Shown: positions 9,930 to 57,204 of the stretch, piece after piece
How the letters are laid out: every line of letters starts with the position of its first letter
Numbering within the stretch: the first letter of the stretch is position 1
Assembly (NCBI GenBank): GCA_964440565.1
Contig: CAYTTB010000006.1
Coordinates: 3,199 to 67,198, forward strand
Source: an uncultured Thermoanaerobaculia bacterium
GTDB lineage: Bacteria; Acidobacteriota; Thermoanaerobaculia; Thermoanaerobaculales; Sulfomarinibacteraceae
Reading direction: 5' to 3'
DNA length: 64,000 nt
Notes under the pieces: generated by a model
The model's database searches: none
What the model was told of the DNA's origin: nothing
Seen by the model: the letters and a program-made list of their open reading frames with translations, nothing else
Position numbers and translations under genes: made by a program

Positions 9930-9930
9930 G

Positions 9931-13065: not shown

Positions 13066-13114
13066 TTCCCCCGTGCGGTGGCGGTGGGGTAGAATCGGGG
13101 CATAGGAGTCCGAC

Positions 13115-14968: not shown

Positions 14969-15035
14969 GGACGCCGCGCGGTTCAGCGACTCGCAGGCCG
15001 CCACGCGCGCGGCCGGCCTCTGGTAGCCTTGCGGG

Positions 15036-16295: not shown

Positions 16296-16298
16296 CCG

Positions 16299-30038: not shown

Positions 30039-30054
30039 TGGCACGGGCCTTGCG
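30039..30054 (+). promoter_or_regulatory. sigma-54 (-24/-12) promoter for the pentaheme small cytochrome
   Basis: TGGCACGGGCCTTGCG versus consensus TGGCACG-N4-TTGCW, with one mismatch at the last base. It lies 26 nt before ATG 30080, and GGAGG at 30069-30073 serves as the RBS. Confidence 0.7.
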
Positions 30055-34764: not shown

Positions 34765-35267
34765 CGCCCGCTCCCGTGCGGTGCTCGGCCCCCACCCTCC
34801 CATCCGGGGAGACGGCGGCCCACCCTGGGCGGCTCCCGGAACCAGGTACGCGCCACGATCCACTCCCCCCCACGGCGCTCGAGGCGGTACGCCACGCGAT
34901 ACTCGTCCTCGGACTCCGGACCCGTGGGCCGGCCGCTCCCCAGCTCCCGCTCGCGGTACCGCCACCGCTCGTGCGTCACCGCGGTCACGGAGCCGTCCTC
35001 CTCCCGGCGGAACCCTTCCAGCTCGAGCTCGACGAGCTCCGCATCCAGCACCCGGCCCATGTCGAGCCGGACACCGATCAGACCGGTGATCTTCTTCGCC
35101 TCCTCCGGGCCGGCCACCGACTCGACCAGTGCGGGGTCCGCGGTGCGGTACGCCTCGACCACAGTGCGATTGTAATTCAGAATCGCCTTCTCCACGGTCG
35201 AGGCCGCGGGCCGCCCGCACCCTGCCACCGCGCCCGCCAGCGCCACCGCCGCCGCGAGCCTACGCAT
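34761..35267 (-). CDS. lipoprotein of unknown function inserted between ccsB and ccsA
   Basis: 168 aa. Signal plus lipobox MRRLAAAVALAGAVAGC. The soluble domain reads AILNYNRTVVEAYRTADPALV...EWIVARTWF. Both ends are translationally coupled. Confidence 0.6.
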   Translation of the reverse strand: MRRLAAAVALAGAVAGCGRPAASTVEKAILNYNRTVVEAYRTADPALVESVAGPEEAKKITGLIGVRLDMGRVLDAELVELELEGFRREEDGSVTAVTHERWRYRERELGSGRPTGPESEDEYRVAYRLERRGGEWIVARTWFREPPRVGRRLPGWEGGGRAPHGSGR

Positions 35268-40994: not shown

Positions 40995-42013
40995 GGGCCG
41001 TCCTCCGTCTGCGTGTTGCCGTCCGCGTAGTGGACCCCGTGGCAGCTCAGGCACTGCACCCGGCCCGCGGCATCGAGGAGGTAGTCGTCACTCGCGATGC
41101 CGTCGCCCCCCGCCCCCTGGACGGAGCCGTCGCCGTCGAGCGGCGCCGTGCGATCCCACCCGTGGCCGTTGCTGCCCAGCGCCACCCCCACCGGGTGGCT
41201 CTTCACCGACCCGTCGTAGGTCTCCACCGCCGTGTGATCCATGGCCCACGCGCGGTGGCAGTCGCGGCAGAACCGGCTCCCCGCGGTGTTGTCCCCGGTG
41301 TCCAGCGGCACCCTCAGGAACGGGTAGGATGCCGTGAACCGCCACCGCTCGCCCACCGCGTAGGTGCCGGAGCCGAAGGTGATCGTGACCCCGCTGTCGA
41401 GCGCGATCGGGGTGCCGATGGTGATGCTCCTGTCGGGGAACCAGGTGGCGCCCTCGTCCTTGGAGTACTTGAAGCTCGAGTCCGCCACCGTGATCTCGAT
41501 CAGGTACGAGACACCGGACGCCCCGGTGTACGATCCACCCGCGGTCACGGTGCCGGTGCTTCCCAGGGAGGTCAGCCTGGCGACGGCACTGATCCTCGCG
41601 CGGCCTCCGTTCGCCGCCGAGGCCGCGTGCTGGTTGTGGCAGGTGGAGCACACGATGGAGCCCCCGTACACCCGCAGCGCCATCTCCTGGTTGGCCGGGA
41701 GCTGGGTGCCGACCGTCGGGTTGACCGCCGCCACCCCGTAGGCGTGGGAGATCCCGCTCTGCCCCAGCACGGCCATGTCGCCCGAGTTGATGGGCAGCGC
41801 GGAGGCGGTCCCCGTGGGGTTGTGGCACGACTGGCAGAGGTTCACGTTGCCGGCCACCGACGTGAGCGTCACCCCGGGGGCCGAGTGTCCCGTGTGGCAC
41901 GAGTCGCAGTCCATCCCCGCGCCCCAGTGGGGCGGATCCACGGCGGCCGCCGGTACCGAGACCGCGAGCGCCACGATCCCGACCCACACGCCTCGCCGTG
42001 CATGCGCCATCAT
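40991..42013 (-). CDS. pentaheme c-type cytochrome with a central non-heme beta domain
   Basis: 340 aa from ATG 42013 (MMAHARRGVWVGIVALAVSVPAAA signal). CXXCH motifs: CDSCH, CQSCH, CSTCH, CRDCH, CLSCH. A ~110-aa heme-free insert lies between hemes 3 and 4. The upstream part of track ORF 40991..42268 is junk. Confidence 0.85.
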   Translation of the reverse strand: MMAHARRGVWVGIVALAVSVPAAAVDPPHWGAGMDCDSCHTGHSAPGVTLTSVAGNVNLCQSCHNPTGTASALPINSGDMAVLGQSGISHAYGVAAVNPTVGTQLPANQEMALRVYGGSIVCSTCHNQHAASAANGGRARISAVARLTSLGSTGTVTAGGSYTGASGVSYLIEITVADSSFKYSKDEGATWFPDRSITIGTPIALDSGVTITFGSGTYAVGERWRFTASYPFLRVPLDTGDNTAGSRFCRDCHRAWAMDHTAVETYDGSVKSHPVGVALGSNGHGWDRTAPLDGDGSVQGAGGDGIASDDYLLDAAGRVQCLSCHGVHYADGNTQTEDGP

Positions 42014-42015
42014 GG

Positions 42016-44619: not shown

Positions 44620-44645
44620 CGGCAGGCCTCCCCCCTCCCGGTCCG

Positions 44646-44661
44646 TGCAACCAGGATGCCA
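44646..44661 (-). promoter_or_regulatory. sigma-54 (-24/-12) promoter of the 12.6-kb minus-strand cytochrome operon
   Basis: The minus strand reads TGGCATCCTGGTTGCA (TGGCAT-N5-TTGCA). It is followed by CGGACCGGGAGGGGGGAGGCCTGCCG and ATG 44619, so the promoter, RBS and start codon are all in register. Confidence 0.75.
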
Positions 44662-44721
44662 GAGCGCGCGCCCCGGCGCCACCCCTCCGCAGCGGGCGTA
44701 CAATCGTCCTCCGGAGGGGGC

Positions 44722-46191
44722 GTGGAGAGAAGCCAACCCAGCACCGGCCGCGCATGGCGGCTTCCGTGGCCGCCGCGGACCGTGTTCGTCGTGATCCCCC
44801 TCCACCTGGTGGCGTTCCTGTTGCTCTACCTCGGCGTGGTCCAGCTCGCGCTGAACCAGGTGACGGTGGCCCACGAGCAGGACATCAAGGTGATGATCCG
44901 GACGGTGGTCGAGGAGCTCCACCCCGCCATGGTGTGCGGCGACGCAGAGAAGGTCCGTGAGCGGCTCGCCCAGTACGTCGCGGCGCACCGGCTGCTGGCT
45001 CTGGAGCTGTACGACCGCCGGGGGCGCCCCCTGGGGCCCACGGCGCGGCAGGACCCCGAGGTGCGGGCGTTCCTCATGGCTCCGGAGCACGAGTCGTACC
45101 GGGTGATCCGCGCCGCGGGCTCGTCGGTGCAGCTCGCCCTGATGCGGATCACGGCGGAGGAGCGGTGCGCGCCCTGCCACACCCCCGGCGAGCCGCTCGG
45201 GGTGGCCTCCGTCGCCCGCGACCTGCGACACGAGCTCGCCGAGACGAAGCGCCGCCTCCGGGTGCACGCGGGGCTCCTCACCGGCGGCTGGATCCTCCTC
45301 GTGGGTCTCCTGAACCTCGTGCTGTCGCGGGCCGCCCGGCGGACCGTGCGGTCGCTCGCCGCCGGCGGCGAGGATGCCAGGCCCTCGCTGGCCATGGACC
45401 CCGTGGCCCTGGAACTCTACCGCTCGCTGCGCGCTACGCTCCGGGCCCGGCGCGAGGAGCGGCGGCGGATGGACGACCACCTCCAGCGCACCGACCGTCT
45501 CGCCACCGTCGGCACCATCGCCGCCGGGATCGCGCACGAGATCAAGAACCCGCTGGCCGGCGTCCAGGGGGCGCTCGAGCTGCTCGTGGAGGAGTGCCAG
45601 GACCACGACCGGCGCGACCTGTTCGAGCGAATGCTGGAGGAGATCCGGCGGGTACAGCGGACCGTGCAGTCGTTGCTCGCCTTCGCGCGGCCCCGGCCCG
45701 TCCAGCCCCGCGTGGCGGACCTCGGCGCCCTGCTGGCCGACGTCGCCGCCCTGCTCGAGCCCGCCTGCCGGCGGCAGGGGATCGAGCTCCGGACCCGCGT
45801 CGCGGCGGGCACCGGAAGCTTCGTGCTGGATCCCGAGCAGATCCGGCAGGTGCTGGTCAACCTGGTCACCAACGCGATGGAGGCCACCGGCCGCGGTGGC
45901 ACCGTCGAGCTGTCGGCGGCGCCGCTCCCGGAAGGTGACGGGGTCGTGCTGGCGGTGCAGGACGACGGCCCGGGAGTCGCCCCGGAGGTGGCCGGACGGC
46001 TGTTCGAGCCGTTCGTGACGACGAAGCTGCACGGCACGGGGCTCGGTCTCGCCGTGGCGCAGCGGATCGTGGAGGAGCACGGGGGCGAGATTCAGGTGGA
46101 GAGCACGCCGGGCCGGACCATCTTCCACATCGTCCTGCCGGCCCGGAGGGGAGGGGAAACGGATGCCGCTGATCCTGATCGTCGAGGATGA
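44722..46191 (+). CDS. sensor histidine kinase (NtrB-like) with a CXXCH heme-c motif in the extracytoplasmic sensor domain
   Basis: In the frame of ORF 41998..46191. TM1 is VFVVIPLHLVAFLLLYLGVV. The ~130-aa loop contains ERCAPCH (45166..45180). TM2 is LLTGGWILLVGLLNLVL. H-box GIAHEIKNPL, N-box VLVNLVTNAME, G-boxes DDGPGV and GTGLGL. Start is uncertain (GTG 44722 after GGAGGGGG; alternatives ATG 44656 and GTG 44782). Confidence 0.85.
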   Translation: MERSQPSTGRAWRLPWPPRTVFVVIPLHLVAFLLLYLGVVQLALNQVTVAHEQDIKVMIRTVVEELHPAMVCGDAEKVRERLAQYVAAHRLLALELYDRRGRPLGPTARQDPEVRAFLMAPEHESYRVIRAAGSSVQLALMRITAEERCAPCHTPGEPLGVASVARDLRHELAETKRRLRVHAGLLTGGWILLVGLLNLVLSRAARRTVRSLAAGGEDARPSLAMDPVALELYRSLRATLRARREERRRMDDHLQRTDRLATVGTIAAGIAHEIKNPLAGVQGALELLVEECQDHDRRDLFERMLEEIRRVQRTVQSLLAFARPRPVQPRVADLGALLADVAALLEPACRRQGIELRTRVAAGTGSFVLDPEQIRQVLVNLVTNAMEATGRGGTVELSAAPLPEGDGVVLAVQDDGPGVAPEVAGRLFEPFVTTKLHGTGLGLAVAQRIVEEHGGEIQVESTPGRTIFHIVLPARRGGETDAADPDRRG

Positions 46192-47524
46192 GGACCTGCT
46201 GCGCTGGTCGCTCCAGCGGCGGCTCGAGAAGGCGGGGCACGAGGTCCACCTCGCGGCGGACCTCGCCGAGGCCGAACGCCACCTGGAGCAGCACCAGCCC
46301 GACCTCCTCCTCCTCGACCTCGCCCTCCCCGACGGTCACGGGCTCGACTTCTTCGAGCGCAACCGGGAGAAGCTGGCGCCCACCGTGGTGATCGTCATGA
46401 CCGCCGTCGGCGAGGTCGAGGACGCGGTCCGGGCGATGAAGCTGGGCGCGCTCGACTTCCTCACCAAGCCCGTGGACCACGACGACCTTCTCGACCTCGT
46501 GCACCGGTCGCTCGAGCGCCGCCAGGAGCAGCTCGACGCGGAGGCGGCGCGGCGCGACCGGCAGCTCCTGATCAGCTCCGACATCGTGGCCCACTCCGAG
46601 GCGTTCCGGCGCACGCTGGCCATCGCGTGCGAGGTGGCCCGGTCGGAGATCGCCACGGTGCTGATCACCGGGGAGAGCGGGACCGGGAAGAACGTCGTGG
46701 CGAGGTACATGCACGCGGTGTCCTCGCGGGCCGAGCGTCCGCTCCTCGAGGTCAACTGTGCGACGCTGCCCGACCAGCTCGTGGAGAGCGAGCTGTTCGG
46801 TCACGAGCGCGGCGCGTTCACCGACGCCAAGACGCTCAAGCGGGGCACCCTGGAGCTCGCCGACGGCGGGACCGTGGTCCTCGACGAGATCGGGGAGCTG
46901 CGGCTGGACGTGCAGGCCAAGCTGCTCCAGTTCCTCGAGAACCGGAGGTTCCGCCGGGTCGGGGGCGTGCGCGAGATCCAGGTGGACACGCGGGTGTTCG
47001 CCCTCACCAACCGCGACCTCACGGCGATGGTGGCCTCGGGCGAGTTCCGCAAGGATCTCTACTACCGGCTCTCGGTCTTCCCCATCGTGGTTCCGCCCCT
47101 TCGCGACCGGCGCGAGGACATCCTCCCGCTCGCGCGTCATTTCCTCCACACCCTCCAGCCGAAGGTGGGACGGCGCTTCGACGGCTTCAGCCGCGAGGCG
47201 GAGAACCGCCTCCTCGCCCACGACTGGCCGGGCAACGTCCGGGAGCTCCGCAACGTCGTGGAGCGGGCCGTGATCCTCGCGCAGGGCCCCACGGTGGGCC
47301 CCGAGTCGCTGGTGCTCGACGTCCGGATGGCGGGCTCCGCGGTGGACGAGTCGTCCGCGGTCCGCGGGATCATCCCCCTGGCCGAGGCGGAGCGCCAGCT
47401 GGTGGAGCGCGCGATGGAGGCCGCCGGAGGCAACCAGACGCGGGCCGCGGAGCTGCTCGGCATCACGCGCGACCAGCTCCGCTACCGGCTCCAGAAGCTC
47501 GGGCTGCTTCCCCGCCGCAAGTGA
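46163..47524 (+). CDS. sigma-54-dependent response regulator (NtrC family bacterial enhancer-binding protein)
   Basis: REC domain (LIVEDE...DLLLLDLALPDG). AAA+ domain with GESGTGKNVVARYMH, the sigma-54 contact loop ESELFGHERGAFTDA and VRELRNVVERA. C-terminal Fis-type HTH RAAELLGITRDQLRYRLQKLG. Confidence 0.92.
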   Translation: MPLILIVEDEDLLRWSLQRRLEKAGHEVHLAADLAEAERHLEQHQPDLLLLDLALPDGHGLDFFERNREKLAPTVVIVMTAVGEVEDAVRAMKLGALDFLTKPVDHDDLLDLVHRSLERRQEQLDAEAARRDRQLLISSDIVAHSEAFRRTLAIACEVARSEIATVLITGESGTGKNVVARYMHAVSSRAERPLLEVNCATLPDQLVESELFGHERGAFTDAKTLKRGTLELADGGTVVLDEIGELRLDVQAKLLQFLENRRFRRVGGVREIQVDTRVFALTNRDLTAMVASGEFRKDLYYRLSVFPIVVPPLRDRREDILPLARHFLHTLQPKVGRRFDGFSREAENRLLAHDWPGNVRELRNVVERAVILAQGPTVGPESLVLDVRMAGSAVDESSAVRGIIPLAEAERQLVERAMEAAGGNQTRAAELLGITRDQLRYRLQKLGLLPRRK

Positions 47525-47526
47525 TC

Positions 47527-47542
47527 CGGCACGCAACTTGCA
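47527..47542 (+). promoter_or_regulatory. sigma-54 (-24/-12) promoter of the pseudo-receiver / 21-heme cytochrome / NHL operon
   Basis: CGGCACGCAACTTGCA matches TGGCACG-N4-TTGCA at every position but the first. It lies 3 nt after the regulator stop and 22 nt before GTG 47564, which has GAAGGAG as its RBS. Confidence 0.65.
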
Positions 47543-47563
47543 GGTCGGCGAGCCCGAAGGAGC

Positions 47564-47983
47564 GTGACGCGGATGCGGCTGATGCTGATGGAGGCGTCGC
47601 CAGTCACCGGCTGGCTGATCCGCCGGCTTCTCCCGCCGGACGTGGAGCTGGTGCAGGTCTCGGATCCCGAGGAGGCCGAGAGGGTGCTGCGCGAGGAGCC
47701 CCTCGACGGCGCCGTCTTCGGGCTCACCACGGCGAGCCTCCCGTGGTCGCGGCTGCGCGACCTGTGCGAGCGCCGGGTCCCCCGGATCCCGCACATGTGG
47801 TATTACTCCCTGTGCGAGGTCCCGGGCGACGGCGAGCTCTCGCCGGAGGCCGCGCCCGAGCTTCCTCCGGTTCTCCTCGAGGAGCTCGAGGAGCGGCTCG
47901 CACGGTTCCTTGCCCGGATCGGGGCGGGCCGCACGGAGCGTCCGGTGCGCGCCAACCCCGGGGAACGGAGGGTACGAGAGTGA
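47564..47983 (+). CDS. small cytoplasmic protein, possibly a degenerate receiver (pseudo-REC) domain
   Basis: 139 aa with very high GC3 throughout. Its RBS sits directly after a sigma-54 promoter. The RLMLMEASPV...VELVQVSDPEEAERVLREEPLDGAVFGL pattern resembles REC beta1-alpha1-beta2-alpha2-beta3, but with Gly where the phospho-acceptor Asp is expected (by-eye alignment). Confidence 0.5.
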   Translation: MTRMRLMLMEASPVTGWLIRRLLPPDVELVQVSDPEEAERVLREEPLDGAVFGLTTASLPWSRLRDLCERRVPRIPHMWYYSLCEVPGDGELSPEAAPELPPVLLEELEERLARFLARIGAGRTERPVRANPGERRVRE

Positions 47984-49689
47984 GGCGTGCGATGCTGCTG
48001 CTGGCGCTGGCCCCGGCCGTGGCGATGGCGGCGCGACACCCGCGGCTGGTCTCGGTGGAGAACACCCGCTGCACCACCTGCCATGCGGAGAAGACGCGCG
48101 GCACGACCGTGCATCCACCCGCGGCCGAGGACTGCACCACGTGCCATGAGATGACCATCGCCCCCTCCGGCACCACCGTGGCGCTGGCCGAGGAGGAGCC
48201 GGCGCTGTGCGTGGGCTGCCACGACGACAAGGCCGCCGCCGCGGAAGGCGAGCTGCCCTCCCCCCACGCCCCGGTCACGGACTCCTGCCTCGACTGCCAC
48301 GACCCGCACGCCACCGACACTCCACATCTCATCACCGCCGACTCGGTACCCGAGCTGTGCACCGGCTGCCACGATCCCGGCGACCTCGAGGGTCCGCACG
48401 GAGGCGTCCTGCCGAGGAACGCCCGGTGCACCGCCTGCCACCTGCCGCACGGCGGACCCAACCCGAAGCTGCTCCGCGCCGCCGGTCAGCACCCGCCGTT
48501 CGCGGAGGGCTCGTGCGACGCGTGCCACCGCAAGCCGCTCGGCCCGCGGATGCGGCTGCGCGGCCGGATCGGCCGGATCTGCTCCTCCTGCCACGGCGAC
48601 CTCACCGAGGGGAGCACGGTCACCCACCCGGCACTGGACCGGCGGCGCAATCGGCGCCAGTGCGTGGCCTGCCACGACCCTCACATGAGCGACGTGGAGC
48701 CGCTGCTGCGCGCCGAGGGACCGGCTCTCTGCGCGAGCTGTCACCCCGGTGAGGCGAAGGCGGCGACGGGGGACGGCGGTCACGCGCCCGCCGCCGAGGC
48801 GTGCACCACGTGCCACCAGCCGCACGCCGCGGCGCGCCGGTACCTCCTCGACGACGCGCCGCCCGAGCTGTGCCTGGGCTGCCACGACGCCGACGACCTG
48901 CGCGCGCCCCATCTCGGGGCCGATCCGGAGTCGCTCACGTGCACCGACTGCCACACCCCGCACGGCTCCGACAACCCGAAGCTCCTCGCCGCGAACCTCC
49001 ACCCTCCGCTGCTCGACGGGTGCGACACCTGCCACGAGGGGGCGTACGACCGTCTCGAGGCCGACGGCGGCTCCGAGCTGTGCCTGGCCTGCCACGACGA
49101 CATCGGCGAGGCGGCGGCGGCGGCCAAGGTCCCGCACCCGGCGATGGAGCTGGCACGGTGCGCCGACTGCCACAACCCGCACGCCTCGCCGCAGGAGCAC
49201 CTGGTGAAGGAGCCCGCGGGTGGCGAATGCCTCGCCTGTCACGACGACATGGGGCCCCGGGAGGGGGAGACCGCGCACGGGGTCATCACGCTGATCGGCT
49301 GCCGCGCATGTCACGAGCCCCACGGCGGACAGCGGCCCAGGCTGCTCCGGGCGGAGGGCGACGCCCTGTGCCTCGCCTGCCACGACGCGAGCCACGCCCC
49401 GGCGCGCGGCAGCTCGCAGCCGGTCACCGTGCTGGGGCGGTTCGAGGTACCGGCGCACGCCGCGCGGCGGATGGCGGTGGTCGAGCTCACCGACGGGAAG
49501 GGGCACCCCGTCAGCGGCCACCGCGCCGTGGGTCCACCCACCCGGCAGGAGGTGGAGCGGGCCGAGACGACCTTCACCGGCACGCTGGGCTGCCTCACCT
49601 GCCACGACCCGCACCGGGGACGGTACAGGCTGCTGCGCTGGGACGCGGAGTCCCCGTTCGCGGCGTGCTCCCACTGCCACCCGAAGTGA
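47980..49689 (+). CDS. 21-heme c-type cytochrome (modular, c7/doubled-CXXCH-like repeats)
   Basis: 569 aa from GTG 47980, which lies 7 nt after GGAGGG and overlaps the upstream stop. Signal VRRAMLLLALAPAVAMA. 21 CXXCH motifs counted, arranged in repeating H-P-P...C..CH / C..CHD / C..CH.PHG..NPKLL units. Confidence 0.9.
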   Translation: MRRAMLLLALAPAVAMAARHPRLVSVENTRCTTCHAEKTRGTTVHPPAAEDCTTCHEMTIAPSGTTVALAEEEPALCVGCHDDKAAAAEGELPSPHAPVTDSCLDCHDPHATDTPHLITADSVPELCTGCHDPGDLEGPHGGVLPRNARCTACHLPHGGPNPKLLRAAGQHPPFAEGSCDACHRKPLGPRMRLRGRIGRICSSCHGDLTEGSTVTHPALDRRRNRRQCVACHDPHMSDVEPLLRAEGPALCASCHPGEAKAATGDGGHAPAAEACTTCHQPHAAARRYLLDDAPPELCLGCHDADDLRAPHLGADPESLTCTDCHTPHGSDNPKLLAANLHPPLLDGCDTCHEGAYDRLEADGGSELCLACHDDIGEAAAAAKVPHPAMELARCADCHNPHASPQEHLVKEPAGGECLACHDDMGPREGETAHGVITLIGCRACHEPHGGQRPRLLRAEGDALCLACHDASHAPARGSSQPVTVLGRFEVPAHAARRMAVVELTDGKGHPVSGHRAVGPPTRQEVERAETTFTGTLGCLTCHDPHRGRYRLLRWDAESPFAACSHCHPK

Positions 49690-49705
49690 GACCGCGGAGG
49701 GACCG

Positions 49706-50746
49706 ATGCGACATCTGACCTGGCGTGTCCTCGCCGCAGCCCTCACGCTCTGGCTCGCCGGCTGCGCCTCCACCGGCCGGCGCCCCGTCCAGGACCCGTA
49801 CGCCGAGTACGTCTGGCCGCCGCCCCCCGACCCGCCCCGGATCCGCCTCGAGACGATCCTCACGGGCCGCGCCGACGTCGAGGCCGAGTCGGGATGGCGG
49901 AAGGCGCTGATCGGGGCCGGCCCGAAGAACCCGTACGACCGGCTCCGCAAGCCGTTCGGCGTGGCGTTCGACGGTCAGGGCCGGATCCTCGTCACCGACA
50001 CCGCGCTCCACGCGCTGGTGCGGTTCGACCGGGAGGGCCACCGCTACGACGTGTTCGGCACCCGCGGGCCCGCCCGGCTCCGCCTGCCGCTGGGTCTCGA
50101 CGTGGCCCCCGACGGGACCGTCTTCGTGGCCGACGCCGGGCGTGCCCAGGTGGTGGCCTACACCGCCGAGGGGAAGCTCGTCGCCCTCTACGGACAGCCC
50201 GGAGAGCTCGTGAACCCCACCGACGTGGCGGTGTCGCCCGACGGCACCCGCCTGTACGTCGCGGATTCCAAGGCGCACCGGATCGTCGTCTACGGCCGCG
50301 CCGACGGGCACCGGGAGGGGGCCTTCGGACGCCGCGGCGAGGGCCCGGGCGAGTTCGCCTTTCCCACCTCGCTCGCCTTCACCCCCGACGGCGACCTCCT
50401 GGTGGTGGACCAGCTCAACTCCAGGGTGCAGCTGCTCACCGACGAGGGCGAGTACCTCGACGAGTTCGGCGGGCTCGGGACCGGCTTCGGGAACTTCGTG
50501 CGCCCCAAGGACGTGGCCGTGGACCGGGAGGGGATCATCTACGTCACCGACGCGGCCTTCAACAACGTCCAGCTGTTCGACTCGGACTTCGAGCTGCTCA
50601 CCTTCGTCGGCGAGGGCGGCGCCGGGCCGGGGCAGTTCCGCATCGCCGCCGGCGTCGCGGCCCACGGCGACCGGTTCGCGGTGGTGGACCAGCTCAACCG
50701 GCGGGTGCAGGTCTTCCGCTACCTCCAGCCCCGCGGTGGGGAATAA
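49706..50746 (+). CDS. NHL-repeat beta-propeller lipoprotein
   Basis: Lipobox LTLWLAGC. Six NHL-like blades, for example FGVAFDGQGRILVTDTALHALVRFD, PLGLDVAPDGTVFVADAGRAQVVAY, PTDVAVSPDGTRLYVADSKAHRIVVY, GPGEFAFPTSLAFTPDGDLLVVDQLNSRVQLL, PKDVAVDREGIIYVTDAAFNNVQLF. Confidence 0.85.
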   Translation: MRHLTWRVLAAALTLWLAGCASTGRRPVQDPYAEYVWPPPPDPPRIRLETILTGRADVEAESGWRKALIGAGPKNPYDRLRKPFGVAFDGQGRILVTDTALHALVRFDREGHRYDVFGTRGPARLRLPLGLDVAPDGTVFVADAGRAQVVAYTAEGKLVALYGQPGELVNPTDVAVSPDGTRLYVADSKAHRIVVYGRADGHREGAFGRRGEGPGEFAFPTSLAFTPDGDLLVVDQLNSRVQLLTDEGEYLDEFGGLGTGFGNFVRPKDVAVDREGIIYVTDAAFNNVQLFDSDFELLTFVGEGGAGPGQFRIAAGVAAHGDRFAVVDQLNRRVQVFRYLQPRGGE

Positions 50747-50768
50747 TACGCACTCCGCCGCGGCCCCT

Positions 50769-50797
50769 GCGCGATTTCGCGCGCGCCCGAAGCGCGC
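50769..50797 (+). terminator. two adjacent GC-rich hairpins downstream of the NHL gene (candidate terminator or protein-binding palindrome)
   Basis: GCGCGA-TT-TCGCGC (50769-50782), then GCGCGC-CCGAA-GCGCGC (50781-50797). They start 23 nt after the stop at 50746 and lie about 150-175 nt upstream of the sigma-54 promoter at 50944. No U-tract follows. Confidence 0.3.
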
Positions 50798-50943
50798 GGT
50801 GTGCGCCCACCGCAGGGCGGCGCGCGTGCGCCGGCCGCGGGAGCGCCCGCGGCGCCCCGAGAGCGCGGCCTCCCGGGCGGTTCGACGGCGTGCAGGACGC
50901 CGCCGCGACGGGATCCGCGGCGGTCACCGCCCGCCCGCCCGCG

Positions 50944-50959
50944 TGGCACGCGCCTTGCA
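50944..50959 (+). promoter_or_regulatory. sigma-54 (-24/-12) promoter of the tetraheme cytochrome / PPIase / barrel / NHL / cytochrome operon
   Basis: TGGCACGCGCCTTGCA is a perfect match to TGGCACG-N4-TTGCA. It lies 59 nt before ATG 51018, with GGGAGGG as the RBS. Confidence 0.8.
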
Positions 50960-51017
50960 GCGGGAGGGGCGGCCCCCGGGAAGGGGCCGCGCGAAAAACC
51001 ACACGAGGGAGGGTCTG

Positions 51018-51665
51018 ATGAAGCGCATCGCAACTGTCACCCTGGCGGTCCTGGCCGCCGCGAGCCTGGCCGGGGCGGGCGTGGTCGGGTCCAAGCACGA
51101 CCTCAGCTCCACCGGCCCGGGGGCCACGACCAACGTGAACCGGGTGTGCGTGTTCTGCCACACCCCGCACCAGAGCGGGACCAACGTGGACCCGCTGTGG
51201 AACCACACCCTGTCCACCGTCACGAGCTACGGCGTGTACTCGTCGTCGACGCTGAACGCCACCCCCACCGACATCGGCGGCGGGAGCGCGGTGTCGAACC
51301 TCTGCATGTCGTGCCACGACGGCACGGTGGCGGTCCACTCGCTCTACAACGAGCCGAACGAGGTGGGCACCATCACCCTCACCTCGGGCGGCAACGTGGA
51401 CAGCAACGGGTTCATGACCGGCACCCCGAACCTGGGCACCGACCTCACCAACGACCACCCGATCAACTTCACCTACGACACCGCGCTGGCCAACGCCGAC
51501 GGCGAGCTGGTGGATCCGGCGACGAACAGCACGGTGGCCGGCCTGCTGTTCAGCGGCACGGTGCAGTGCGCGTCCTGCCACGACCCGCACGACGACACCA
51601 ACGCGCCGTTCCTCGTGATGAGCAACACCAACAGCGCTCTCTGCACCACCTGTCACATCAAGTGA
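51018..51665 (+). CDS. small tetraheme c-type cytochrome (paralog family)
   Basis: 215 aa. Signal MKRIATVTLAVLAAASLAGAG. CXXCH motifs: CVFCH, CMSCH, CASCH, CTTCH. Family motifs: GSKHDLS, VCVFCHTPH, PLWNH, LCMSCHDGT, GTDLTNDHPI, and the C-terminal NSALCTTCHIK. Confidence 0.88.
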   Translation: MKRIATVTLAVLAAASLAGAGVVGSKHDLSSTGPGATTNVNRVCVFCHTPHQSGTNVDPLWNHTLSTVTSYGVYSSSTLNATPTDIGGGSAVSNLCMSCHDGTVAVHSLYNEPNEVGTITLTSGGNVDSNGFMTGTPNLGTDLTNDHPINFTYDTALANADGELVDPATNSTVAGLLFSGTVQCASCHDPHDDTNAPFLVMSNTNSALCTTCHIK

Positions 51666-51699
51666 CCGTGGCCCGGGTCCACCGGGTTCTGCTACTGTC

Positions 51700-51726
51700 C
51701 GGGCGGGGCCGAGGCCCCGCCCGTTT
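51700..51726 (+). terminator. intrinsic-terminator-like hairpin (possible intra-operon attenuator) after the tetraheme gene
   Basis: GGGCGGGGCC-GA-GGCCCCGCCC followed by GTTT. It lies 35 nt after the stop at 51665 and 13 nt before ATG 51739. Confidence 0.45.
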
Positions 51727-51738
51727 CCTGGAGGTTCG

Positions 51739-52716
51739 ATGCGACGCGCCACCGTCCTGCTGCTCGCGCTCCCCCTCCTGCTCGCCGCCCGTCCCTCCGG
51801 CCAGGTGGTGGCCCGCGTGGGCGACCGGGTCATCACCCGCGCCCTCCTGGACGCCGCCGTGGACCAGGCCCTCAACTCCCGCTTCCGGCACGCGGCGCTG
51901 ACCCACGAGCGGCGCCTCCAGCTCGAGCGGGAGCAGCTCCGCACGCTGATCCGGAAGGAGCTGTCCGTGCTGGGCGGGCTCGACGCGGGGATGGAGCTGC
52001 CGCTTCAGGAGGCGGAACGGCGGCGGCGCGAGATCCGCGAGCGTCTCGGCCGGAAGCGGTACCGCGAGGGGCTCCGGGCCGCCGGGATGACCGTGCGCCA
52101 GCACCGCCGGGCCATCGCCGAGACCCTGCTCGCCGAGCAGGCCTACCGGCGGTTCGTGAAGGAACGGGCCGCGGTGACCGATGCCGACGTCCGCGCGGCG
52201 TACGACGCCGATCCCGGCCGCTGGCGCCGGCCCGAGGCCCGCCGGCTCCGCCACCTGGTGCTGGCGGTGCCCCCGGGCGCGGACGCCGCCACCGTCGCCC
52301 GCGTGGAGCGGGAGGCGCGGGAGCTCCTCCGCCGGATCCGGGCGGGGGAGCCGTTCGAGAAGCTCGCGGCCGAGCGCAGCGCCGACATGTACCGGATCCG
52401 CGGGGGCGACCTGGGCTGGGTCCACCGGGGCCGGCTGCTGCCGGAGCTCGAGGCGGCGGCGTGGAGCGCGACGGTGGGCGAGGTGGTGGGGCCGATCCGC
52501 ACGGACACCGGCTACCACCTGCTCCAGATCCTCGAGGTCCGGCCCGAGGCGCAGCTGAGCTTCGACGAGGCGGCACCCATGATCCGGAAGAAGCTGGAGG
52601 CCGAGCGGCTCGAGGCCGCCGAGTCGGCGTGGTTCGGCGAGCTGGCCCGCCGCCACCCGGTGGCGGTGCTCGTGCCCGAGCTGGCCGCCGCCTGGGACGG
52701 TGCGGGAGGTCGGTGA
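51739..52716 (+). CDS. exported parvulin-type peptidyl-prolyl cis-trans isomerase (SurA/PpiD-like chaperone)
   Basis: Signal MRRATVLLLALPLLLAA. N-terminal SurA-like helical region. PPIC domain RLRHLVLAVP...FEKLAAERSADMYRIRGGDLGWVHRGRLLPELEAAAWSATVGEVVGPIRTDTGYHLLQI. Confidence 0.85.
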   Translation: MRRATVLLLALPLLLAARPSGQVVARVGDRVITRALLDAAVDQALNSRFRHAALTHERRLQLEREQLRTLIRKELSVLGGLDAGMELPLQEAERRRREIRERLGRKRYREGLRAAGMTVRQHRRAIAETLLAEQAYRRFVKERAAVTDADVRAAYDADPGRWRRPEARRLRHLVLAVPPGADAATVARVEREARELLRRIRAGEPFEKLAAERSADMYRIRGGDLGWVHRGRLLPELEAAAWSATVGEVVGPIRTDTGYHLLQILEVRPEAQLSFDEAAPMIRKKLEAERLEAAESAWFGELARRHPVAVLVPELAAAWDGAGGR

Positions 52717-54487
52717 GGTGGGCGCCCGGCGAGCGCTCCTCCCCATCGTGACGCTGGCGCTGGCGGCCGCGGCCCCCGCCGCGGCGCAGCGGTACGGGCA
52801 GTGGTGGCTGGACGGCCGGATCGGAGCGGAGTACCGCTCGTACGAGAACCGCACCGACGGCGAGCTCGCCTCCCGTTACGACCAGCGGCGCTACCGCCTG
52901 AGCCTGGCCCTCAACGGCTACATCGTCCACCCGGCGCTGGCCTCGTTCCGCCTGGAGCTCGAGGGGATCCTCGACCGGTACCGGGACGGGTTCGGTCTGG
53001 ACAGCGACCGCACCGGGGCGCGGGCGGAGATCCGCCTCTTCCCCGAGGGGTGGTACCCGATCCGGCTGTGGGTGGGACGCACCGCGTACAGCTACGACAC
53101 CCGGGCGACGCCCCGGCAGGGAACGTTCCTGCCCGCCATCCCCGACACCCAGACCGTGGCCGGGGGCCGCCTGAGGTTCAGACGGGGCCCGCTGCGCGGC
53201 ACGCTCCTGGGTGTGGACCGCTCCACGCTGCGCCTGGTGGACGGACGCCGCCAGCGGGACGACCGCGAGTTCGTGGACTGGGCGCCGGGCAACGGCCCGC
53301 TCGGGCACCACTACCGGCTCGAGCACCGCGTGCTCCGCTACGCCGCCACCCCGTACACCCTCGACGACTGGACGTTCAACGGCGACGAGCACGGCGACAT
53401 CGGCCGGGGCTGGCGCTGGGACATGACCGCCGTCGGCGTCCGGCGCGGTTTCGAGGCCGCCGGGACCACCCTCACGACCACCGTGACCCGGCTGGCCAAC
53501 CGGTTCACGCGCCAGACGGCCCACCGCGGCCTGCTCACCCTCGGCTACACCGCCGGCTGGACCTCCTCGGACGCGATCACGAGCTCCAGCCACCTGGTGG
53601 AGGCCCGCTGGGAGCGCGACCTGGGGAAGGGAGTCCGCGCCGGTCCGTTCGCCGCCCTGGCGTACAGCACCGGCGGCGGCAGGTCCTCGAGCAGCCAGCG
53701 CCTGGGAGGGTACCTCACCTGGTCCGGCGCGGCGGGTCCCCTCGACAGCGTGGTCTCCGCCCAGGTGGCGGCGGGACGGTTCGCGCCGCCCGAAGGGCCC
53801 GCGCGGACCTCCAGCTCGCTGGCCCTCGCGACGACCCTCGGCCACGGCACGGAGGAGACGCTGCGCAGCGAGCTGGAGCTCGGCTGGACGCACTCCACCG
53901 CCGACATCGCGGGACCGGAGGCCGCACTGCCCGATCTCGGCGCCGCCGTGATCGGCTCCGCCACCGCCGACAGCACGCGCGCCCGGCTGAGCCTCCGGCG
54001 CCGGTTCGGGAGAACCCGGGCCTACGCCTACGCGGAGCTCCGTCGGCGCGAGGGCCAGAGCCTGCTGCGGGTCGGCCGGTCCACCGTCGAGGGACGGACC
54101 TACTCCGCGCAGGTGGACGGCGGCCGCCTGACGCTCGCCGTCCTGCACACCGAGGTGGACTCCATCGCCGGCTCCCGTCAGCGGGTCGAGGCCGACTCGG
54201 TCTCGCTGGGGTTCCGTCCCTTCAGGGCGCTCTCGCTGCACGCCTCCTACCGCACCGACGTCCGCCATCTCGAGCTCGTCCCCGACGTGGACGGGGAGCA
54301 GCTGCAGGCCCAGCTCACCTTCCACCTCGGGATGCTGGACCTCCGGGCGGAGTTCTACGACAGCCGCGAGCGGCTCGAGGGGGACGGGGATCGCCGCAAC
54401 CGGGGCGTGGTGGTGATCCTCTCGCGCCGCTTCGCGACGCTCCTGCCCATCGTGACGGCGCCCGAGCGGCGGGGGGTGATCCGGTGA
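52700..54487 (+). CDS. putative outer-membrane beta-barrel protein (no family recognised)
   Basis: Signal ALLPIVTLALAAAAPAAAQ. The rest is dominated by alternating-polarity strands rich in R/Y/G/T (RYRLSLALNGYIV, ARAEIRLFPEG, RARLSLRRRFGRTRAYAYAELRR, QLQAQLTFHLGMLDLRAEFYD). A late strand, GVVVILSRRF, ends in Phe. Start is uncertain (52700 or GTG 52718). Confidence 0.55.
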   Translation: MREVGEVGARRALLPIVTLALAAAAPAAAQRYGQWWLDGRIGAEYRSYENRTDGELASRYDQRRYRLSLALNGYIVHPALASFRLELEGILDRYRDGFGLDSDRTGARAEIRLFPEGWYPIRLWVGRTAYSYDTRATPRQGTFLPAIPDTQTVAGGRLRFRRGPLRGTLLGVDRSTLRLVDGRRQRDDREFVDWAPGNGPLGHHYRLEHRVLRYAATPYTLDDWTFNGDEHGDIGRGWRWDMTAVGVRRGFEAAGTTLTTTVTRLANRFTRQTAHRGLLTLGYTAGWTSSDAITSSSHLVEARWERDLGKGVRAGPFAALAYSTGGGRSSSSQRLGGYLTWSGAAGPLDSVVSAQVAAGRFAPPEGPARTSSSLALATTLGHGTEETLRSELELGWTHSTADIAGPEAALPDLGAAVIGSATADSTRARLSLRRRFGRTRAYAYAELRRREGQSLLRVGRSTVEGRTYSAQVDGGRLTLAVLHTEVDSIAGSRQRVEADSVSLGFRPFRALSLHASYRTDVRHLELVPDVDGEQLQAQLTFHLGMLDLRAEFYDSRERLEGDGDRRNRGVVVILSRRFATLLPIVTAPERRGVIR

Positions 54488-55443
54488 GGCGGGCGCTCGT
54501 GACGATACTCGCGGCCGCTCTCGCCGCCTGCACCGCCACGGGAGGCTGGCGGCGCCCCGGCACCACCGTCACCGCGGGACCGGCCACCATCGCCGTGGAG
54601 CGTGTGTTCGCGGGCGGCGGCCGGCGCGGGGTGGTGGGCTGGCTCACGGGACGCCGGCCCGGTCCGGCGCTGGTACGTCCCTACGGGGTGGCGTGGGACG
54701 GCGACGATCTCCTGGTGACCGACCCCGGGGCCGGCCGCGTGGTCCGCATCGGGCCCGGGGGCCGGCTGCGGGGCGGGCCCCGCGGCGGACTCGCCTCGCC
54801 GGTGGGTGTCGCCGTGTGCACCGATGGGATCCTGGTCACGGACTCTCGGGCGGGGACCGTGGTCCGCCTCTCCCGGGGACTGCGGCCCGCCGCACGGCTC
54901 GCCGAGGGGCTCCTCCGCCCCACCGGCATCGCCTGCGTCGGCGGCGCGGTGGTGGTCGCCGAGACCGGCGCCCACCGCCTGGTGGTTCTGGATCCCGGCG
55001 GCGGCCGGCGGACCATCGGGCGCCGTGGGAGCGGACCGGGCGAGTTCAACTTCCCCACCGCGCTCGCCGCCGACGGCGACACCGTCTGGGTGGGTGATAC
55101 CCTCAACTTCCGCCTGCAGCGGATCCGGCTTGCCGACGGGGAGCCGCTCACGGTGTTCGGGCGCCTCGGCGATGCCCCGGGCGAGCTGCCCCGGGTGAAG
55201 GGGATCACCGTGGACCCCGCGGGCCGCCTGTGGGTGACGGAGGAGCGGCTGGACCAGGTGATCCTGTTCCGGAGAGACGGCACGCTGCTGGCCACCGTCG
55301 GCGGATCGGGCCAGGAGCCGGGCCGGTTCGCGTTCCCGGCGGGGATCGCCGCCCGGCCGGACGGCGCGGTGGCGGTGGCGGACTCGCTGAACCGGCGGGT
55401 GCAGGTGCTGCGCCTCGTCGTGGAGGGGGTGGGCCATGGCTGA
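54484..55443 (+). CDS. NHL-repeat beta-propeller lipoprotein
   Basis: In the frame of ORF 52801..55443 from GTG 54484 (GTGA overlap). Lipobox ILAAALAAC. NHL-like blades include PYGVAWDGDDLLVTDPGAGRVVRI, PVGVAVCTDGILVTDSRAGTVVRL, GPGEFNFPTALAADGDTVWVGDTLNFRLQRI, GRFAFPAGIAARPDGAVAVADSLNRRVQVL. Confidence 0.8.
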   Translation: MRRALVTILAAALAACTATGGWRRPGTTVTAGPATIAVERVFAGGGRRGVVGWLTGRRPGPALVRPYGVAWDGDDLLVTDPGAGRVVRIGPGGRLRGGPRGGLASPVGVAVCTDGILVTDSRAGTVVRLSRGLRPAARLAEGLLRPTGIACVGGAVVVAETGAHRLVVLDPGGGRRTIGRRGSGPGEFNFPTALAADGDTVWVGDTLNFRLQRIRLADGEPLTVFGRLGDAPGELPRVKGITVDPAGRLWVTEERLDQVILFRRDGTLLATVGGSGQEPGRFAFPAGIAARPDGAVAVADSLNRRVQVLRLVVEGVGHG

Positions 55444-56116
55444 CGCTCGAGCCCGATGGATCGGCGCCGGGGTCGCGCTGGCGCTCGCCGGCACCGCGCT
55501 GGCGCAGCAGGCCGGCGTCGCCGGCACGCTGCACAACCTCTCCGTGAGCGGACCGGGCGAGGTCAAGTCCCTCACCGAGACCCAGGTGTGCAAGTTCTGC
55601 CACATCCCGCACAGCGCCGTGGTGCCGCAGCCGTTGTGGGGGCACAGGCTCCCGGAGAACGTGCGCTACCGGACGGCCGAGCCGTGGCGTGGCCGCGGCC
55701 AGCGGGAGACGCTCCCGCAGCCGGACGGCGCCTCGCGCTTGTGCCTGTCCTGCCACGACGGGACGGTGGCGCTGGGCGACGTCGCCGGGGAGCCGCGTCC
55801 CATCCCGATGGCCGGCTCGCAGCGGCTGGAGCCGGGACGGCCCGGGTACATCGGGACCGACCTGAGCGGGTCGCACCCGATCTCCTTCCGGGTGACCGAC
55901 CAGGTGCCGCTCGCGCCCGAGCAGGACATGGGCGTCAAGCCGCTCGACGCCATCCGCTCCGATCCGGACGTCCGCCTCGACGCCGAGGGCAAGATGCAGT
56001 GCACCACCTGCCACGATCCGCATTCGGACGCCAACTACAGGCCCGGCGTGACCCCCCACTTCTGGGTCAAGCCCACCGTCACGGAGGTGTGCGCCACATG
56101 CCACGAGCTGCGCTGA
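55436..56116 (+). CDS. small tetraheme c-type cytochrome (divergent paralog of 51018..51665)
   Basis: 226 aa with a signal peptide. CXXCH motifs: CKFCH, CLSCH, CTTCH, CATCH. Family motifs are retained: GTLHNLS, VCKFCHIPH, PLWGH, LCLSCHDGT, GTDLSGSHPI. The ATG overlaps the upstream stop by 8 nt. Confidence 0.85.
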   Translation: MADARARWIGAGVALALAGTALAQQAGVAGTLHNLSVSGPGEVKSLTETQVCKFCHIPHSAVVPQPLWGHRLPENVRYRTAEPWRGRGQRETLPQPDGASRLCLSCHDGTVALGDVAGEPRPIPMAGSQRLEPGRPGYIGTDLSGSHPISFRVTDQVPLAPEQDMGVKPLDAIRSDPDVRLDAEGKMQCTTCHDPHSDANYRPGVTPHFWVKPTVTEVCATCHELR

Positions 56117-57204
56117 GCGCCGCCATCGTCCTCGCGGCGGCAGGCCTCGCCACCGCCGCGAGCCCCCACCTGGACCCGTCCCTGATGCTCGCGGGGTGCG
56201 CCTCGTGTCACGCGGGCCACGGCGCCTCCGGATCGCCGATGCTGCCGTCGGGACAGACCGAGCTGTGCCTGAGCTGCCACGGTTCGGAGAACGACGTGCA
56301 GCGACGGATCGCCGAGGGCGTGCTCGCCGCCGGGGCGGCGCCGCCCCTCCTCGACACCGCGCTGGCGCAGCCACACCGCCACCGTCTCGACGCGGCCGCC
56401 ACCTCGCGCTTCGAGACCCAGGCGGTGACCTGCACCTCCTGCCACGCTCCCCACCGCGGGCTGCCGCCGGCGAGCGACACGGGTCCCGGCCGGAGGAAGC
56501 TGTCGCCACTCGACCCCTCCCGGTTCGAGTTCCAGCTCTGCGAGGGATGCCACGGAGGGGCCGGTGCCGCCACCCAGGACCTGCTCGACATCTCGCGGCT
56601 GCTCAGCCCCGAGAACCGGTCGTTCCATCCCGTGGAGGCGCCCGCACCGGACCGCTCGCCGTCGGTCCGGCCCGAGCTCTCCGGGCAGTACATCAACTGC
56701 ACCGACTGCCACGGCAATGACGACCCGGCCGGGGCACGCGGGCCCCACGGCTCCAGCGTCGAGAAGCTGCTCGTGGCCTCGTACGTGCGGACCGACGGCA
56801 GCCCCGAGTCGGCCGACACCTACGCCCTGTGCTACCGCTGCCACAACCGCGCCGCGCTCCTCTCGGGGAGCGGCCCGTTTCCCGAGCACCGCACGCACGT
56901 GGTGGAGGAGCGCACCGCCTGCGCCACCTGCCACAACCCCCACGGCTCGGTGACCAACCGCGCCCTGATCCGGTTCGGCGAGGAGACCACCCTCGGAGGC
57001 GTGAAGCCCTCCTCCTCCGGGCGCCTCGAGTTCCTCTCCCCGGGCCAGGGCTCCGGGCTGTGCTACCTCACGTGCCACGGGGAGGATCACGATCCGAAGG
57101 GGTACGGCGCCGGCGCGGCCCTGATCGGGCGGACCGGGGAGCCGGTCCGGGTCCTCTCCACGCGGCCGCCCCGACGGCCGGTGGCACGGCCCCCGCGGCG
57201 GTAG
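56098..57204 (+). CDS. multiheme c-type cytochrome (7 CXXCH + 1 CX3CH), homologous to the C-terminal part of the giant cytochrome
   Basis: 368 aa from ATG 56098 in the frame of ORF 55456..57204. Signal MPRAALSAAIVLAAAGLATAA. Heme motifs: CASCH, CLSCH, CTSCH, CEGCH, CTDCH, CYRCH, CATCH and CYLTCH. It shares the NRSFHPV...C.DCH.NDD...GPHGS block with residues ~1337-1396 of the giant protein. Confidence 0.85.
   Translation: MPRAALSAAIVLAAAGLATAASPHLDPSLMLAGCASCHAGHGASGSPMLPSGQTELCLSCHGSENDVQRRIAEGVLAAGAAPPLLDTALAQPHRHRLDAAATSRFETQAVTCTSCHAPHRGLPPASDTGPGRRKLSPLDPSRFEFQLCEGCHGGAGAATQDLLDISRLLSPENRSFHPVEAPAPDRSPSVRPELSGQYINCTDCHGNDDPAGARGPHGSSVEKLLVASYVRTDGSPESADTYALCYRCHNRAALLSGSGPFPEHRTHVVEERTACATCHNPHGSVTNRALIRFGEETTLGGVKPSSSGRLEFLSPGQGSGLCYLTCHGEDHDPKGYGAGAALIGRTGEPVRVLSTRPPRRPVARPPRR

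Follow-up and report, generated by a model that had tools for sequence, protein, structure and literature searches.

Does a bacterium that encodes three small multiheme cytochromes of one family use them as interchangeable parts, or does each have its own task? This question is raised by a 64,000-nucleotide (64-kb) stretch of DNA from an uncultured Thermoanaerobaculia bacterium (contig CAYTTB010000006.1 of assembly GCA_964440565.1), referred to here as the window, which encodes three paralogous c-type cytochromes of 215 to 234 amino acids (aa), designated copies A, B and C. An initial annotation had taken them for candidate major and minor subunits of a polymer, or for alternative terminal modules. 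The present analysis indicates with high confidence that copy B is a member of the OmcE family of filament cytochromes and lies in a nanowire-type gene cluster, which makes the locus a new member of the OmcE-type nanowire clusters, a system already known. The three copies are not equivalent, since comparison with their relatives places B, C and A each in a different class.

Three cytochromes of one family

Because the window is 74% G+C, lists of its open reading frames (ORFs) are full of spurious frames, and the gene layout used in this study was drawn from third-position GC, Pfam matches and independent gene calls. The three cytochrome genes described in the initial annotation were found in place (Table 1), with five, four and four CXXCH heme motifs and a plausible Sec signal peptide at each start. 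Their products align collinearly, copies B and C being 44% and 34% identical to copy A, respectively. All of the shared motifs listed earlier were recovered, namely (K/L)H(D/N)LS, VCxxCHxPH, PLW, LCxxCHDGT, GTDLxxxHPI and CxxCHxPH in all three copies, together with a C-terminal PFLxMxNxNSALCxxCH in copies A and B only.

Searches of the Protein Data Bank returned the same two entries for all three proteins and essentially no others. One is 7TFS (chain A), the OmcE filament of Geobacter sulfurreducens, and the other is 9YUQ, in which the OmcE nanowires of Desulfuromonas soudanensis are bundled; no other bacterial OmcE filament has been solved by cryo-electron microscopy. In Geobacter and Desulfuromonas, members of the OmcE family polymerise outside the cell into filaments that conduct electricity. 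The phmmer match to 7TFS_A had an E value of 1.2e-37 for copy B, 9.6e-26 for copy A and 1.7e-18 for copy C, and copy B was similar over its full length both to this chain and to 9YUQ_N (E=3.6e-33). It had been recognized in the initial annotation that the polymer idea would suffer if the homologues were periplasmic electron carriers; on checking, the closest characterised homologues proved to be the OmcE filaments.

In a five-way alignment of the three copies with 7TFS and 9YUQ, the eight cysteines and four histidines of the CXXCH motifs are invariant, as are four histidines outside these motifs (H27, H51, H147 and H191 in copy B numbering). The core of an OmcE homologue was described as four CXXCH motifs plus four other heme-coordinating histidines in a 2025 preprint on 9YUQ (bioRxiv 10.1101/2025.10.22.684050). 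The conserved non-CXXCH histidines, which had been put forward earlier as candidate distal ligands, correspond to the four distal-ligand histidines conserved across the OmcE family. Heme-ligand positions were at least 98% conserved in every class among 245 OmcE-like domains drawn from 160 loci. All three copies carry the four CXXCH motifs of OmcE in the same order and spacing, copy A having these four and one inserted.

When one genome was scanned for each species, more than 567 relatives came to light in a wide range of phyla. Among their hosts is a cultured iron reducer, Geothrix fermentans, whose strain DSM 14018 has an OmcE homologue beside an NHL gene (L038). The closest named homologues came from Thermoanaerobaculia and Acidobacteriota metagenome-assembled genomes (MAGs); the Acidobacteriota are absent from the five phyla listed in the 2025 preprint.

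Copy B as a candidate filament subunit

Copy B is 42-44% identical to the two solved OmcE subunits, which are themselves 41% identical to each other. In a neighbour-joining tree of 138 domains it groups with the standalone tetrahemes, both solved OmcEs among them. In OmcE, as in OmcS, the interfacial heme is ligated by one histidine from each of two adjacent subunits; the OmcE filament rises by about 34 Å with every tetraheme subunit. It had been proposed that such inter-subunit ligation could be recognized by counting histidines against hemes. The count proved uninformative: OmcE has exactly two histidines per heme, and inter-subunit ligation cannot be revealed in this way because the ratio is 2:1 even in a proven filament with exchanged histidines.

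Given its family membership, copy B would probably polymerise in this organism. The earlier suggestion of polymer subunits is therefore well supported by homology for copy B, while the minor-subunit roles assigned to copies A and C are still conjectural. The effective number of codons (Nc) of copy B, 28.2, is the lowest of 23 genes; the spread is small, and this is a faint hint on expression.

Copy C and the heptaheme as a split undecaheme

The initial annotation had taken the small cytochromes for candidate major and minor subunits; that they would be interchangeable in such roles does not hold for copy C. The commonest architecture among the relatives is an OmcE-like tetraheme gene, an NHL gene, a gap of about 3 kb, a second NHL gene and a protein of about 555 aa with 11 CXXCH motifs, such fused proteins accounting for 60 of 161 matches. 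The N-terminus of this undecaheme is OmcE-like and bears the HNLSVSGPG signature of copy C, and its C-terminus is similar to the heptaheme cytochrome encoded directly after copy C in the window. In the neighbour-joining tree, copy C nests within a clade of 54 fusion N-domains. An exhaustive search with copy C returned 3903 representative clusters, in which the best matches were mainly proteins of 500-740 aa aligned at their N-termini, and fused and split members were interleaved inside one subclade.

Copy C and the heptaheme lie in different reading frames, overlap by 19 nucleotides (nt) and have separate signal peptides of their own, and they are therefore regarded as a split undecaheme. The split has also been kept in two related loci (L004 and L020). 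All of the top 120 homologues of the heptaheme fall between 329 and 406 aa in length. The split form is thus lineage-wide and not an assembly error. By its place among these relatives, copy C is assigned as the orthologue, now detached, of the N-terminal domain of the UetJ-type undecaheme, named after the undecaheme electron transfer (uet) cluster. On the customary reasoning from domain fusions, repeated fusion and fission of two parts implies their joint action. Together with the translational coupling of the overlapping genes, this argues that copy C and the heptaheme act as one complex.

Residues 322-327 of the heptaheme form a CX3CH motif (CYLTCH) of which both cysteines and the histidine are invariant in 40 homologues; the number of bound hemes may therefore be eight in the heptaheme and twelve in the fused form. 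A stopper role for copy C through a "ninth histidine" was also considered. The residue, H208, lies in a PHFWVK insertion kept in the window, L004 and L020. It was rejected as a conserved ligand, the position being occupied by arginine or proline in the next relatives, P0249 and P0251, and variable across the subclade.

Copy A, a five-heme variant

Copy A retains the OmcE ligand set and has a fifth CXXCH motif inserted between heme 2 and the DHP histidine. Of 39 five-heme relatives, 38 carry their fifth motif at this very site. Close relatives of copy A share H121, in the sequence DKHDL some 20 residues ahead of the added CXXCH, but not H150, which makes H121 the better candidate for the distal ligand of the fifth heme. 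With its OmcE length, OmcE ligand set and extra CXXCH, copy A is placed by sequence in a separate five-heme OmcE-like class, which again sets it apart from an interchangeable subunit. From AlphaFold3 models it has been suggested that five-heme OmcE-like proteins may constitute a new family of nanowires, one of whose hemes is exposed (bioRxiv 10.1101/2025.10.22.684050). In this class the extra heme would be open to the solvent and pack against the main chain.

Among the metagenomic relatives, the five-heme gene often stands in tandem with a four-heme gene in the structural slot of the cluster. Copy A, in contrast, stands alone at a distance of 20 kb from the cluster, has a sigma-54 promoter to itself and neighbours genes for TPR membrane proteins. 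One of these, a polytopic protein encoded divergently from copy A, is homologous to proteins that follow the omcE cluster in Geobacter-type loci (BLASTP E=5e-23 over about 550 aa against L006 16197-17699).

Two of the metagenomic loci (L088, 4002-6198; L089, 1211-3407) carry three tandem OmcE-like genes in the order NHL, five-heme, five-heme, four-heme, peptidyl-prolyl isomerase, an arrangement reminiscent of major and minor pilin arrays. In the window, a gene for a GAF and HD-GYP-type protein, possibly a cyclic di-GMP phosphodiesterase, converges on copy A from the reverse strand (30777-31967) and overlaps its 3' end by 8 nt. Downstream of it on the same strand lie genes for a B12-binding radical SAM protein, a CopD-like protein, a CcsB-like protein and ResB.

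The gene cluster around copy B

The genes from the activator to the heptaheme form one co-oriented cluster (46163-57204; Table 1). The full order, including copy C and the heptaheme, is repeated in L004, whose OmcE homologue is 75% identical to copy B, and in L020, an Acidobacteriota MAG. A published minimal omcE cluster comprises two multiheme cytochromes, two beta-propeller lipoproteins, OmcE and a large beta-barrel. All of these parts occur in the window in one orientation, with three additions: a peptidyl-prolyl isomerase, copy C and the activator. A neighbourhood containing a beta-propeller lipoprotein and a large barrel, the criterion used in the 2025 preprint, is present for copies B and C; neither was found within 15 kb of copy A.

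Table 1. Position and support of the features discussed, in window coordinates.
Feature	Position	Strand	Evidence or remark
Copy A: 5-heme OmcE-like cytochrome, 234 aa, 5 CXXCH	30080-30784	+	
Copy B: OmcE-family tetraheme, 215 aa, 4 CXXCH, Sec signal peptide; candidate filament (nanowire) subunit	51018-51665	+	
Copy C: OmcE-like tetraheme module, 226 aa, 4 CXXCH	55436-56116	+	
Heptaheme cytochrome, 7 CXXCH and conserved CX3CH, own signal peptide	56098-57204	+	Overlaps copy C by 19 nt
NtrC-type sigma-54 activator: receiver, AAA+ sigma-54 interaction domain, Fis-type helix-turn-helix	46163-47524	+	Pfam PF00072, PF00158, PF02954
orf136, small conserved ORF, 136 aa	47573-47983	+	44-47% identity in L004, L020
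21-heme c-type cytochrome, signal peptide	47992-49689	+	21 CXXCH; Paired_CXXCH_1 matched 11 times
NHL-repeat beta-propeller lipoprotein 1, lipobox LAGC	49706-50746	+	Pfam NHL E=1.7e-26
SurA-like peptidyl-prolyl isomerase, UetB-like position	51739-52716	+	Pfam Rotamase, SurA_N_3
Predicted outer-membrane beta-barrel, about 28 strands, 595 aa	52700-54487	+	AlphaFold2, Foldseek
NHL-repeat beta-propeller lipoprotein 2, lipobox LAAC	54484-55443	+	Pfam NHL E=1.2e-21
Polytopic membrane/TPR protein, divergent from copy A	28108-29784	-	Independent gene call, 558 aa
CcsB-like gene, near ResB	33943-34764		Independent gene calls
ResB-like system II cytochrome c biogenesis protein	35260-36498	-	Pfam ResB; independent gene calls
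Sigma-54 (-24/-12) promoter of copy B, TGGCACGCGCCTTGCA	50944-50959	+	Exact consensus; -24 element 74 nt before ATG
Sigma-54 promoter of copy A, TGGCACGGGCCTTGC	30039-30053	+	Exact consensus; -24 element 41 nt before ATG
Third sigma-54-like element, CGGCACGCAACTTGCA	47527-47542	+	One mismatch, GG and GC intact; precedes orf136 and 21-heme cytochrome
GC hairpin, perfect 10-bp stem, 4-nt loop, then UUUCC	51700-51723	+	35 nt after copy B stop

NHL lipoprotein 1 is homologous to the propeller protein encoded upstream of omcE in a Geobacter-type locus (E=2e-49). No Pfam or NCBIfam family was matched by the 595-aa barrel candidate. Its AlphaFold2 model consists of a signal helix followed by 28 consecutive antiparallel strands, with a predicted local distance difference test (pLDDT) score of 67. 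Foldseek placed this model with outer-membrane barrels of large size; of the top hits, MtrB (6R2Q_B) reached the highest TM-score, 0.49. The small orf136, which likewise matched no Pfam or NCBIfam family, stands between the activator and 21-heme genes, right behind the third sigma-54-like element. In L004, a gene for a HisKA sensor kinase precedes the orthologue of the activator.

Promoters and regulation

The sigma-54 consensus TGGCAC-N5-TTGC is matched exactly at two sites in the 64 kb, against 0.05 expected, and none of 100 shuffled sequences reached two. As the initial annotation had it, these sites stand directly before two of the cytochrome genes, copy A and copy B, and their promoter cores are near-identical. 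The position of the copy B element is conserved: its distance from the ATG is exactly 74 nt in the window and in L004 alike, despite divergence of the remaining intergenic sequence, and L020 also has an exact match to the consensus. Copy A also has a GGAGG ribosome-binding site 7 nt before its ATG. Copy C lacks a separate promoter, since the NHL gene before it ends (55443) only after the copy C ATG has begun (55436).

Given the copy B promoter and the activator gene at the head of the cluster, control of the cluster by a sigma-54/NtrC-type system is well supported by sequence. Related activators were found within 10 kb in about 22 of 80 related loci; the rpoN gene is not in the window. A search for common activator-binding sites upstream of the A and B promoters yielded only GC-rich k-mers, no better than chance. 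An inverted repeat with an AT-rich centre stands just after the stop of NHL 1, about 170 nt upstream of the copy B promoter (TGCGCGATTTCGCGCG at 50766-50790, forward strand), and another was seen in L004 at about 9735-9760 (GTGCGTAATTTCACACGCAC). This repeat could be an activator-binding site, a candidate that is indistinguishable from chance with three sequences.

The hairpin after copy B, called terminator-like in the initial annotation, has a perfect stem, but by the usual rules it is a weak terminator. The region folds no better than shuffled sequence (z = -1.0). In L004 a hairpin is found at the same position after the copy B homologue, followed by TTGTTGT. It is possible that the hairpin acts as a partial terminator or as a stabiliser of the mRNA. 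From this layout, the internal promoter and a leaky hairpin would favour the copy B transcript over the accessory transcript.

A second GC hairpin, CGGCCCC-CGGGAA-GGGGCCG, is present in the copy B 5' leader (about 50968-50992, forward strand) between the promoter and the ribosome-binding site, and the L004 leader has a different GC hairpin in the same place. The leader hairpin may stabilise the mRNA. An 85-nt tRNA-Gly(CCC) was called by ARAGORN over the copy B promoter and leader (50929-51013, reverse strand). This call was judged a GC-rich false positive: Rfam found no tRNA there even at E<=10, the sequence does not fold as a cloverleaf and the orthologous loci lack such a call.

Comparison with known systems

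Copy B resembles the OmcE proteins of Geobacter and Desulfuromonas in being a tetraheme of similar length with an identical heme-ligand set. The surroundings also agree with the Geobacter OmcE cluster, in which an NHL lipoprotein gene lies just upstream of the subunit gene, multiheme cytochromes are encoded upstream and a large barrel downstream, and a second propeller, ResB/CcsB and membrane/TPR proteins are found nearby. The Geobacter-type loci examined are without a peptidyl-prolyl isomerase, a second OmcE-like gene or a heptaheme after the second propeller, whereas the window has all three. Their barrels are also longer, at 749-806 aa against 595 aa. According to the 2025 preprint, an OmcE-like tip or stopper candidate is not encoded in the operons of Desulfuromonadia.

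The uet cluster was described in Candidatus (Ca.) Tenderia electrophaga and has been found in Gallionella. The window shares with it the order tetraheme (UetA), peptidyl-prolyl isomerase (UetB), beta-barrel (UetC) and, further on, NHL (UetH/I) and undecaheme (UetJ). It differs in having two genes, one for 4 and one for 7(+1) hemes, in place of the single undecaheme gene, in having no genes for triheme c7 (UetDEG) or cupredoxin (UetF) proteins in the interval from barrel to NHL gene, and in having a 21-heme cytochrome and an NHL gene before the tetraheme, with sigma-54/NtrC-type regulation. Sequences were compared with Uet by way of two loci of Uet architecture (L082 and L083), and the Tenderia system was compared by description. 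L082 reproduces the uet order gene for gene, and it was found through the OmcE homology of its tetraheme and of its undecaheme N-terminus. A connection between Uet and OmcE was not found in a literature search; the Uet authors did raise polymerisation as a possibility.

Judged by its genes, the window bridges the Geobacter-type OmcE and Uet systems. The NHL gene before the subunit gene, ResB/CcsB and the membrane/TPR homologue are Geobacter-like, and the peptidyl-prolyl isomerase and the split undecaheme are Uet-like. With conduits of the MtrCAB type the window has in common a large outer-membrane barrel gene adjoining multiheme cytochrome genes. There is, however, no specific homology, and propeller lipoproteins and OmcE-family members are absent from Mtr systems. 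The DFE_448-451 and DFE_461-465 clusters of D. ferrophilus and the Occ cluster of Ca. Dechloromonas occultata may be related. An "OmcS companion cluster" was dropped from the comparison, as it was not confirmed by PMC10954620.

Proposed mechanism and alternatives

It is considered fairly probable that the window encodes an OmcE/Uet-type extracellular electron-transfer cluster with copy B as its polymerising structural subunit. Copy B would be exported by the Sec pathway and have its hemes attached (the ResB/CcsB genes lie nearby), and would then cross or mount the outer membrane, aided by the barrel of about 28 strands, the two NHL propeller lipoproteins and the SurA-like peptidyl-prolyl isomerase. 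There it would polymerise head-to-tail into an insulated heme wire in which, as in Geobacter OmcE, a histidine of one subunit completes the bis-His ligation of a heme in the next. Transcription would be sigma-54 dependent, presumably driven by the NtrC-type activator at the cluster head, and the separate promoter before copy B and the hairpin after it would yield more of copy B than of the accessory transcript. Copy C and the heptaheme would most likely form one unit that offers an OmcE-type surface to the copy B polymer and either links it electrically to the cell envelope or caps it. Copy A may serve as a minor subunit or as an alternative one, whose additional heme is probably more exposed. 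As regards the secretion route, the roles of copy A and of copy C with the heptaheme, and the direction of electron flow, this scheme is what we infer.

Several observations weigh against this proposal. No filament has been observed in this lineage. Tetrahemes of OmcE-like type occur very widely, in 4317 clusters at E<=1e-10, and the 2025 preprint cautions that OmcE-like proteins need not all form wires; nor does it say which distal histidine crosses the subunit interface. The barrel model is of moderate confidence, and the protein has no detectable sequence similarity to the Geobacter-type barrel. The AlphaFold2 model of the heptaheme (pLDDT 58.7), for which the Foldseek matches are meaningless, is too poor to place this protein. 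Its phmmer match to MtrA (E=9e-8) is reduced by a profile search to paired-CXXCH motifs, and, being at motif level only, does not decide between a barrel-threading and an extracellular role. The hairpin after copy B has three U's only, lacks a proper U-tract and was left unflagged by a terminator scan. Finally, uet has been modelled in the literature as a porin-cytochrome complex for electron uptake in Tenderiales and Gallionella.

A complex of this last kind, involving no polymer, is an unlikely though not negligible explanation of the window. Copy B, as a UetA-like protein, would then be a monomeric extracellular tetraheme docked on a conduit of barrel plus cytochrome, and copy C with the heptaheme would be a UetJ-like terminal oxidoreductase. 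Electron flow could then be into the cell, as it is when Fe(II) or a cathode is oxidised. Besides the literature model itself, the order tetraheme-PPIase (peptidyl-prolyl isomerase)-barrel, then NHL-undecaheme, which fits both the published uet cluster and L082, speaks in favour of such a complex, as does the rank of MtrB among the structural matches of the barrel. Copy B, however, is as near to both proven filament subunits as these are to each other, and it has kept every ligand residue. The triheme c7 and cupredoxin genes of uet are absent from the window, and possible polymerisation was suggested by the Uet authors themselves.

The separate promoters of copies A and B could instead mean that the two are alternative filaments for different conditions, one insulated with four hemes and the other "leaky" with five, with copy C and the heptaheme providing a third wire of larger subunits. 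Geobacter does make three different wires, an OmcE/OmcZ-like family has been proposed in the preprint for the five-heme OmcE-like proteins, and tandem five-heme and four-heme genes recur within one operon in metagenomes. The near-identical promoter cores, however, suggest co-regulation rather than alternation, the single-operon tandems elsewhere fit co-assembly equally well and polymerisation of the undecaheme is without any evidence, and this explanation is regarded as distinctly improbable.

It is scarcely credible that the three are redundant soluble periplasmic carriers of cytochrome c3/c7 type, as the marginal Pfam matches to Cytochrome_C7 and Cytochrom_c3_2 and the public annotation of homologues as "cytochrome c3 family protein" might suggest, since those matches are partial and near or below the cut-offs whereas the full-length matches are OmcE filaments, 215-234 aa for four to five hemes is far above the about 70-120 aa of a cytochrome c3 or c7, and the conserved linkage with an outer-membrane barrel and lipoprotein propellers points to a surface location.

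A wider suggestion may be offered, which is held tentatively and is itself rather doubtful: the OmcE nanowire operon of Geobacter and the Uet "porin-cytochrome complex" of electroautotrophs and iron oxidisers would be variants of a single machine, the widespread variant having as its missing adaptor, encoded in the operon, the OmcE-like module at the undecaheme N-terminus. This module (here copy C, paired with the heptaheme) would bind to the filament by way of the ordinary interface between subunits and link the wire to the barrel-associated cytochrome, as an anchor and electrical connection, or else cap it as a terminator or tip.

Neighbouring genes and related contigs

Three large genes lie on the reverse strand at 36498-46128, divergent from the cluster. 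They encode a protein of about 1500 aa with 13 CXXCH motifs and an fn3-like region, a five-heme cytochrome of 425 aa and, with Ig-like/ASH domains, a protein of 1370 aa. At the same position, L004 has genes for a related cytochrome and Ig/ASH protein, and these divergent genes may belong to the same island as the cluster. Housekeeping functions occupy the window at 1135-18197, including a prolyl oligopeptidase, a 2-oxoglutarate dehydrogenase E1/E2/E3 operon, a Ser/Thr kinase, glycosyltransferases and asparagine synthase.

A complete cluster of bacterial type (activator, NHL, OmcE-like, NHL, undecaheme) was also seen on a contig binned as a Thermoplasmata archaeon (L080). Its presence there reflects either mis-binning or horizontal transfer.

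Implications

The field openly acknowledges that it has yet to explain how cytochrome nanowires leave the cell, how they are anchored and electrically charged, and what terminates them. The window, like many loci across phyla, encodes an OmcE-like module within the operon; the module is in some cases joined to a heptaheme and in others, this one included, a small protein in its own right. The most interesting aspect of the locus is just this module, an operon-encoded relative of OmcE that could anchor, connect or cap the wire. As a separate protein, copy C can be expressed and tested alone.

The cluster also extends candidate OmcE-type wires to Thermoanaerobaculia-like Acidobacteriota. Wires may also be built by the Uet systems of bacteria that oxidise iron or cathodes. 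If this is true, it would bear on the genome-based reading of iron and electron cycling in sediments and subsurface habitats.

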